Of a DNA stretch of 64,000 nt, positions 59,255 to 59,375 are shown in pieces. The translations under genes were made by a program, and so were the position numbers. The DNA is from Mycobacterium phage prophiFSAT01-1, in sequence record BK061308.1; one strand, written 5' to 3'. The first letter of the stretch is position 1. The number at the start of each line of letters is the position of its first letter. The notes beneath the pieces were generated by a model that saw only the letters and a program-made list of their open reading frames with translations, ran no database searches and was not told where the DNA came from.

Positions 59255-59375
59255 AGCAGCAATGGTAGACAGGTCTACCAATATGGACTCACTGAAAGTG
59301 TTGTACAAGGCAACGCTACGTCAAATGGTGGACATAGACCTCGTGCAGTTTAGGTAGTAGAGTCATCTACCAACG
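59255..59375. promoter_or_regulatory. divergent promoter region with TGGTAGA-CAGG-TCTACCA perfect palindrome and a second GGTAG…CTACC site
   Basis: Same motif as at 55340-55412, between the 59189(-) and 59396(+) starts. Confidence 0.5.

Follow-up and report, generated by a model that had tools for sequence, protein, structure and literature searches.

The stretch of DNA analysed here, 64,000 nucleotides of sequence record BK061308.1 from Mycobacterium phage prophiFSAT01-1 (hereafter the window), carries two short palindromic sites, which we call O4 (59263-59280) and O5 (59356-59371), between two small divergent genes. We consider it probable that O4 and O5 are operators at which an autoregulated helix-turn-helix (HTH) protein of the prophage blocks RNA polymerase, and that they represent a variant, without the start-associated sequence (SAS), of the extended start-associated sequences (ESAS) found in Cluster K mycobacteriophages. 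In the proposed mechanism, a prophage-encoded protein, assumed to act as a dimer, would occupy O4 over the -35 region of a gp92-like gene's leftward promoter (gene names follow the numbering of the related prophage McProf) and O5 over the -10 hexamer of a gp94-like gene's rightward promoter, and would thereby keep RNA polymerase off both promoters. We infer the sign of the effect, i.e. repression, and the identity of the binder, the likeliest candidate being a 122-residue HTH protein encoded at 56277-56645. The operon of this protein begins at an array of related sites (55344-55409), so that it would also limit its own synthesis, and the circuit would act independently of the immunity repressor. 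Our confidence that O4 and O5 are protein operators on promoters, served by something other than the immunity repressor, is higher than that in the statement as a whole, while our confidence in the predicted binder is lower.

An earlier note on this DNA, made from the letters alone, had reported a perfect 18-bp palindrome, which is indeed present as O4: TGGTAGA-CAGG-TCTACCA (TGGTAGACAGGTCTACCA) consists of two 7-bp arms around a 4-bp spacer (7-4-7) and has a 16-bp core, GGTAGA-N4-TCTACC, at 59264-59279. The second site, described as GGTAG-N9-CTACC, does exist 73 bp further on (59353-59371), but its nine-base spacing was a frame error; the real arrangement of O5 is AGTAGA-GTCA-TCTACC, with one mismatch to the motif and the 6-4-6 geometry that all other copies have. 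A lone perfect 7-4-7 palindrome is unremarkable (six in the window compared to 4.8 in shuffled sequences), whereas the recurrence of one half-site is unusual. Two of the six perfect palindromes have the same arms, GGTAG-N4-12-CTACC is found seven times in the window with 0.13 matches expected, and GTAGANNNNTCTAC (GTAGA-N4-TCTAC, at most one mismatch) eight times with 0.47 expected, a count that none of 100 shuffles reached. Six of these eight copies fall within 55344-59371, where they are intergenic and close to gene starts: O1 at 55344, O2 at 55370, O3 at 55394, a further site at 57199, O4 at 59264 and O5 at 59356. The likeness to an array at 55340-55412, to which the note had drawn attention, is real (the array spans 55344-55409), and the set exceeds the one it gave, comprising this array, the site of a small, possibly leaderless gene at 57199 and the O4/O5 pair. 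The other two matches, at 26728 and 26970, are located inside a large structural gene and are treated as chance. At 26969-26984, GGTAGCGATGTCTACC shows one mismatch and lies inside a gene for a 1179-residue minor-capsid/ADP-ribosyltransferase fusion; it is identical in McProf, probably retained there as coding sequence, and its likeness to the motif is probably coincidental. We also considered the IdeR iron box, whose consensus contains GGTWAG-S-CTWACC, and set it aside given its spacing of 13 bp as opposed to 16 bp.

Judged by its sequence, the window is a McProf-like (cluster MabR) prophage of Mycobacteroides: the 851 bases around the site are 93.5% identical to McProf and 82-90% identical to three M. 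abscessus MabR prophages. The MabR set used for comparison comprised five genomes, namely the window prophage, McProf, prophiFSIL01-1, prophiFVLQ01-1 and prophiFSQJ01-1 (FSIL01-1, FVLQ01-1 and FSQJ01-1 below). O1-O3, O4 and O5 occupy the same positions in all four relatives, with fixed half-sites and variable 4-bp spacers. In the most distant relative, FSQJ01-1, 13 of 16 positions are identical at O4 and 14 of 16 at O5, compared to 33 of 76 in the interval between them and 11 of 24 in the stretch after O5. Despite this divergence of the interval, the distance from O4 to O5 is 93 bp in FSQJ01-1 and 92 bp in five genomes. Moreover, the outer base pair is symmetrically changed at all five sites of FSQJ01-1, which read AGTAGA..TCTAC(T/C), and the recognition helix of its HTH protein is altered as well (DRMTIRKWQ vs DRMTVRRWR). 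Further relatives were not obtained: a search of a genome contig collection with the HTH protein gave no match, and a word-indexed protein search returned four close MabR proteins only. Recurrence near gene starts, islands of conservation, free spacers, overlap with promoters and symmetric change are the evidence for the reading offered in the earlier note, i.e. operators through which one regulator controls several promoters. This reading holds on the available computational tests and is plausible, binding itself being predicted.

The flanking genes are small and divergent and carry the Shine-Dalgarno (SD) sequences that had been ascribed to them. The open reading frames (ORFs) bear this out, and independent gene callers predict both genes in relatives. 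The gp92-like gene (59004-59189, minus strand, 61 residues) has AAGGAGG 5 nt ahead of its ATG, and the gp94-like gene (59396-59593, plus strand, 65 residues from the SD-proximal ATG) has GAGGAGG 6 nt ahead of its own. For gp94, the annotation of McProf gives a GTG at 59375 as start, while the independent gene callers choose, in relatives, the SD-proximal ATG. Inside O5, a candidate -10 hexamer TAGAGT (59358-59363, plus strand) fits TANNNT and would serve the gp94-like gene, with SD and ATG 21-33 nt downstream. On the minus strand, a candidate extended -10 element TGCTACACT (59250-59258) would serve the gp92-like gene; at a distance of 5 bp upstream, O4 would cover the -35 region. This element is conserved at nine of nine positions in three relatives and at seven of nine in FSQJ01-1 (TGCTACTGT). 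Read by eye, the hexamers are TAGACC-16-TGC-TACACT at O4 and TAGACC-17-TAGAGT at O5, and both they and the transcription starts derived from them are candidates. The layout of a site followed by TGCTACGGT (TGCTACnnT) is repeated between O2 and O1 (55357-55367) for the leftward gp87-like gene, and O3 contains the rightward, extended -10-like TGGTAGAAT (TAGAAT); the hexamers of O3 and O5 both fit TANNNT and face the adjacent gene. In a promoter consensus scan of 55000-60200, the only promoter reported was TTGATA-17-(TG)TAGACT (57235-57207, minus strand), whose -10 is a half-site of the 57199 palindrome. Since O4 and O5 appear to be built into core promoters, a bound protein would exclude RNA polymerase, i.e. 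act as a repressor.

Such an arrangement resembles the ESAS, which have been catalogued since 2011: in each, two imperfect inverted repeats of 17 bp precede the 13-bp SAS (Pope et al. 2011, PMC3203893). Each ESAS of phage Adephagia contains a SigA-like promoter, and a repressor of the repeats distinct from the immunity repressor has been proposed (Freeman et al. 2024, PMC11373665); the ESAS regulator was still stated to be unknown in papers of 2024 and 2025 (PMC11373665, PMC12699233). In TM4 and TClif we find TGTTGA-N4-TCAACA repeats, paired at 28-31 bp, ahead of several genes, the HTH gene among them, and each followed by GGATAGGAGCC, which identifies them as the published ESAS. Boilgate (K8, MZ274310) had been chosen as a negative control expected to be without the HTH gene; it proved to have both this gene and GTAGA-type repeats and became supporting evidence instead. 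Its TGTAGA-N4-TCTACA repeats are single or paired at 23 bp, with GTTGA..CTAC hybrids directly upstream of the HTH gene, and ESAS-like repeats are present at 24934, 24957, 43621, 43645, 45836, 44465, 21743 and 21772. The published survey lists no ESAS in K8 (PMC12699233); these repeats were probably missed since Boilgate is without a consensus SAS and its half-site is different.

Several features connect the sites of the window to the ESAS. The inverted repeats measure 15-17 bp and have the geometry nGTWGA-N4-TCWACn, in the window GGTAGA-N4-TCTACC, and the core GTAGA-N4-TCTAC is identical to that of repeats in Fionnbharth (K4) and Boilgate (K8), TGTAGA-N4-TCTACA in both, while the MabR and K2 half-sites differ in the central base only (GTAGA vs GTTGA) at identical spacing. 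As in the ESAS, the repeats are intergenic, precede non-structural and lysogen-expressed genes and are absent from the repressor-cro region; they may also overlap SigA-like -35/-10 elements in the manner of the ESAS (at O4 and O5, the candidate hexamers). At 57199, the start codon adjoins the right repeat, as in some K4 ESAS (PMC12699233), and, by a criterion of our own, a homologous HTH gene follows immediately downstream of one element in the window as in the ESAS phages. Other features set the two apart. The SAS GGGATAGGAGCCC, which in ESAS comes right after the repeats at 3-9 bp from the start codon, was not found in the 64 kb when up to two mismatches were allowed; at three mismatches there are nine matches compared to 17 expected, none of them near the O4/O5 genes. 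Moreover, O4 and O5 each stand alone, at a distance of 92 bp (76 bp between them), and do not form a pair 4-13 bp apart. The array at 55344-55409 does have ESAS pair spacing (spacers of 10 and 8 bp), as has a pair of sites at McProf gp56, but unlike an ESAS it consists of three repeats serving divergent promoters. In the left half-site, GTAGA takes the place of the -35-like GTTGAC. Mycobacteroides is the host, and the sites belong to an attR-proximal cassette of a prophage with little else in common with Cluster K. Because the window contains no SAS and O4 and O5 are not a closely spaced pair, sequence comparison places them as an ESAS-like variant and not as a member of the class.

The candidate regulator (56277-56645, plus strand, 122 residues) is encoded by the DNA-binding gene nearest to the sites, belongs to the McProf gp89 family and has a C-terminal HTH with the recognition helix VDRMTVRRWRGKR. 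It matches PHROG 2311, 'HTH DNA binding protein' (E-value 2e-21), and weakly the Pfam family HTH_23; a sequence search of the PDB gave a weak match to the transposase-type HTH of 2jn6 (E-value 0.06). In all five MabR genomes its gene is part of the operon that starts at O1-O3, of which it is the leading gene in two. A tblastn search with the protein returned 231 phage records, of which 228 are from Mycobacterium phages; those examined or recognised are Cluster K phages, including TM4 with gp38. Within Cluster K, the HTH gene is directly downstream of a repeat element in every genome examined (n = 10). Adephagia gp36 and the product of ZoeJ gene 36 are homologues, Adephagia gene 36 is preceded by an ESAS, and genes 36-38 are expressed in lysogens of both phages (PMC11373665). 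Among the window proteins that are common to the K phages with GTAGA-type repeats, only two are potentially DNA-binding, the gp89-like HTH protein and a gp13-like HTH protein of the early operon (3723-4448).

The recognition helix of the gp89-like family varies together with the half-site. Where the repeats are GTAGA/TCTAC, the helix reads VDRMTVRRW (four MabR genomes), VDRMTIRKW (FSQJ01-1) or VDRMTVRDW (Boilgate, K8, and Aminay, K7), while TM4, TClif, Nergal, MacnCheese, Larva and Shandong1, with GTTGA/TCAAC, have V/IDRLTVRKW/Y. Adephagia (K1), with INRLTVRKY, keeps GTTGA in one half of an asymmetric repeat and differs in the other. The K4 ESAS are reported to have T where those of K2 and K3 have A (Yasnaya_Polyana paper, PMC12699233), and from this published base we predicted a DRM helix in K4 before Fionnbharth was looked up; its gp39 indeed reads IDRMTLRDW. 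The left repeat of Fionnbharth is GTTGA-N4-TCTAC, which keeps the -35 TTGAC, and the right one is GTAGAGTGCTCTAC, with the same -10 TAGAGT as in O5. A third lineage, the metagenomic viral contig L025, has TGTAGACAGCACTACA and TGTAGTGTGGTCTACA 23 bp apart at the head of a two-gene operon whose second product, with a DRM-T helix, ends in ARVDRMTVRRWAGK. This pairing of DRM with GTAGA and of DRL with GTTGA is supportive, not conclusive. On these comparisons, we give roughly even weight to the wider proposal that the family of gp89, TM4 gp38 and Adephagia gp36 is the ESAS-binding regulator of an immunity-independent circuit in Cluster K and MabR, which would control lysogen-expressed accessory genes, and that one residue of the recognition helix (Met113 as opposed to Leu) would recognise the half-site's central base (GTAGA as opposed to GTTGA).

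Several observations speak against this HTH protein as the regulator or against the mechanism drawn for it. Independent lineages are few (about two to three with DRM, one to two with DRL), and shared ancestry could produce the covariation. In one metagenomic contig, L026, a DRMTVRRW helix is encoded and no GTAGA-type site occurs in the 5 kb to either side. For the HTH protein, the AlphaFold model has a mean predicted local distance difference test (pLDDT) score of 66.7, with the HTH region below 50, and a Foldseek search of the PDB with this model gave no structural match. The gp13-like HTH protein is equally common to the GTAGA-type K phages and is thus a possible binder. At O4 and O5 the consensus scan reported no promoter, their -35 and -10 elements having been read by eye below its threshold, and the position of the O4 centre, near -28 from the inferred start, does not settle repression versus activation. 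As a separate observation, L026 (IMGVR_UViG_3300044808_000022) contains two copies of GTGTCCGGACAC 44 bp apart (3954-4012), with GGTAGAGT and an ATG after the second copy. The gene whose product ends DRMTVRRWAGK lies about 1 kb downstream of them; this contig may be an exception to the rule of helix and half-site, or the repeats may be the operator of another regulator.

That O4 and O5 are operators of some other protein, be it the gp13-like HTH protein, the gp92-like protein or a host transcription factor, is in our view unlikely. The gp13-like protein is common to the window prophage, Boilgate and Fionnbharth, but its gene is tens of kb away from all sites, whereas in all genomes the gp89-like gene stands directly behind a site array, even in the unrelated contig L025. 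In favour of the gp92-like protein are its high conservation, a basic stretch followed by heptad repeats and the position of its gene directly beside O4; against it, no homologue of gp92 occurs at those Cluster K loci in which the motif is present, and a half-site separation of about 10 bp suits an HTH dimer better than a zipper-type protein. A host factor would be compatible with the results so far, yet would leave unexplained why half-sites differ between phages of the same host (K2 vs K4, M. smegmatis) and track a phage protein.

Much the same promoter evidence could be taken to mean that the palindromes are promoter sequence only, i.e. back-to-back -10-like TAGAnn hexamers with no dedicated regulator. 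Three sites do contain a TANNNT hexamer facing the adjacent gene (TAGAAT, TAGAGT and TAGACT), two of them with a TG extension, and TAGACn resembles the -35 consensus. However, the opposite half-sites of these three are equally conserved without offering a usable hexamer (TAGTTC, TAGATG, TAGAGC), O1, O2 and O4 are conserved with TANNNT on neither strand, and the outer positions change symmetrically in FSQJ01-1. Promoter function would also leave the dyad symmetry with its fixed 4-bp spacer unexplained, and we regard this explanation as improbable.

Palindromes on promoters are also typical of immunity repressors, so that O4 and O5 might be additional operators of the McProf gp3 family through which genes are silenced in the lysogen. 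The family of this repressor, too, is common to Cluster K2 phages (PMC8191103), and the FSQJ01-1 variant CTAGTAGA resembles a repeat of the McProf immunity region, ACTAGTAG. Nevertheless, nothing in McProf 1-25000, a range that includes the repressor-cro intergenic region, matches the motif with two or fewer mismatches, and the repressor-cro region has the different repeat ACTAGTAG, which in turn is absent from the window. Genes of the O4/O5 region are moreover reported as expressed in McProf lysogens, in which the immunity repressor is abundant (PMC8191103), a statement at the level of the region that gives no per-gene values for gp85-95, and the same argument against the immunity repressor has been made for the ESAS of Adephagia (PMC11373665). 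Because the McProf repressor-cro region lacks the motif, we consider the immunity repressor very unlikely as the regulator. Between 2594 and 2881, this intergenic region of McProf contains (A/G)CTAGTAG four times in direct and once in inverted orientation, which is likely the motif of the immunity repressor and distinct from the O4/O5 palindrome.

Least credible of all is a role as RNA hairpins that terminate, stabilise or attenuate transcripts: although each site could form a 6-bp stem with a 4-nt loop (weak stems of -4.6 to -7.4 kcal/mol) and the outer G-C to A-T change of FSQJ01-1 keeps the pairing, it is the arm sequence itself, not just its complementarity, that is fixed over six sites and five genomes, the sites are upstream of genes, have no U-tract and leave the terminator scan silent, three of them contain a likely -10 and so would not be fully transcribed, Rfam has no match at the O sites (only CcsR1, far below threshold, at 57177-57280), and an RNA role was likewise rejected for the ESAS by Pope et al. 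(PMC3203893).

Compared to other phage control systems, operators of the HTH protein at O4 and O5 would share with the OR/OL operators of lambdoid phages and the gp33 sites of phage BPs the use of short, dyad-symmetric, multi-copy sites over divergent promoters, at which a dimer is expected to block RNA polymerase and to regulate its own gene. Unlike these, they are not at the repressor-cro switch, and the regulon would consist of accessory genes near attR instead of the lytic early operons. With the stoperators of Cluster A phages they have in common one short repeated motif and, as predicted here, one phage protein that controls transcription. Stoperators are asymmetric 13-bp sequences, present in dozens genome-wide, that follow the direction of transcription and are targets of the immunity repressor, whereas the sites described here are dyad-symmetric, with six in 4 kb, at promoters.

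Position 1 of the window corresponds to about McProf 3741, with integrase, immunity repressor and cro just outside. The O4/O5 locus is situated between the lysis genes and attR, a block described as probably expressed in lysogens (PMC9434293; PMC8191103). Its neighbours are the AAA-ATPase gene gp91, gp92 (minus strand) and gp93-95 (plus strand), followed by a WXG100/polymorphic-toxin cassette. The gp92-like protein, a basic region followed by heptad repeats or coiled coil, belongs to PHROG 2570, a family of no assigned function, and is highly conserved even in the FSQJ01-like lineage. The leader of its gene (59190-59249, minus strand) is identical to FSQJ01-1 at 54 of 63 positions, above most of the surrounding DNA, and contains a hairpin, GACACC-TTTC-GGTGTC (59228-59243), with fixed arms and a variable loop (TTTC, CTGC, TTGC, TTGTC). 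By the promoter reading, this hairpin would be at the extreme 5' end of the transcript; it might act as an RNA element or provide another site for a protein. Just past the gp92-like stop codon, and overlapping it, are the adjacent inverted repeats CCAGGGG..CCCCTGG (58960-58992) and GATCTGCTG..CAGCAGATC (58994-59021), which may terminate the gp92 transcript ahead of the AAA-ATPase gene; they do not appear in the output of the terminator scan because they have no T-run. The AAA-ATPase gene itself (57304-58881, minus strand), between the two operator regions, encodes an nSTAND3-type NTPase (Pfam, E-value 6e-8) with a weak IetA-like PADLOC hit and may be a prophage-encoded defence gene. No palindrome was found upstream of it, and PADLOC recognised no known defence protein among the small genes. 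The 39-residue gp93-like ORF (59238-59357, plus strand), which spans O4 and is annotated in McProf, was considered as a real gene and rejected: other pipelines do not call it, FSQJ01-1 has no equivalent ORF in the interval (43% identical), and a hand count against FSIL01-1 gave seven non-synonymous and three synonymous changes. It is probably not a gene.

The sister sites O1 (55344-55359), O2 (55370-55385) and O3 (55394-55409) stand between the divergent gp87-like and gp88-like/HTH operons and are kept in all relatives. Between 55409 and 55425, the window is without a segment of about 15 bp (..catcagaggacaccc) in which McProf and FSIL01-1 have the gp88-like gene's ribosome-binding site; owing to this missing stretch the ATG is only 3 nt past O3, and translation of the gp88-like gene may differ in the window prophage. 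The sixth site, GGTAGAGCAGTCTACC (57199-57214), adjoins the ATG of a 62-residue ORF (57010-57198, minus strand), and this start directly after the palindrome suggests a leaderless mRNA. The ORF, with its own palindrome and promoter, makes up a segment of about 370 bp (56930-57303) that is present in FVLQ01-1, absent from McProf and FSIL01-1 and flanked by terminator-like hairpins (56978-56991 and 57240-57276). Its protein has no family match in PHROG, Pfam or PADLOC, and the segment looks like a mobile small-gene cassette with its own operator. McProf has a similar arrangement, in which two sites 24 bp apart (about 34941-34980) precede gp56, a reverse-oriented small gene in the structural operon; the pair is not in the window, which is short there (30178-30339). 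An ATG adjoins the second of these sites, 14 codons upstream of the annotated GTG, and the annotated start of gp56 is probably wrong. McProf gp56 is reported to be weakly expressed in lysogens (PMC8191103). A leaderless start at every site was considered and given up: it fits the 57199 cassette, FVLQ01-1 gp91 and McProf gp56 (ATG 0-4 nt after the site), fails for gp88, whose conserved start in McProf is further downstream, and is doubtful for the ORF after O4.

In a wider view, a phage regulator and its operators are a familiar kind of system. The main value of the present analysis is a concrete, testable candidate for the ESAS regulator: the same repeat core recurs in an unrelated cluster of Mycobacteroides prophages always beside one HTH gene whose recognition helix tracks the half-site, so that both the protein and the residue to be tested can be named. 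Engineered phage therapy makes use of Cluster K phages, and TM4 serves as a vector; for these uses a second regulatory circuit would be relevant. In M. chelonae, McProf has been associated with increased whiB7 expression and with antibiotic resistance; the genes at these sites belong to the McProf region expressed in lysogens, and the circuit proposed here may control clinically relevant prophage genes.

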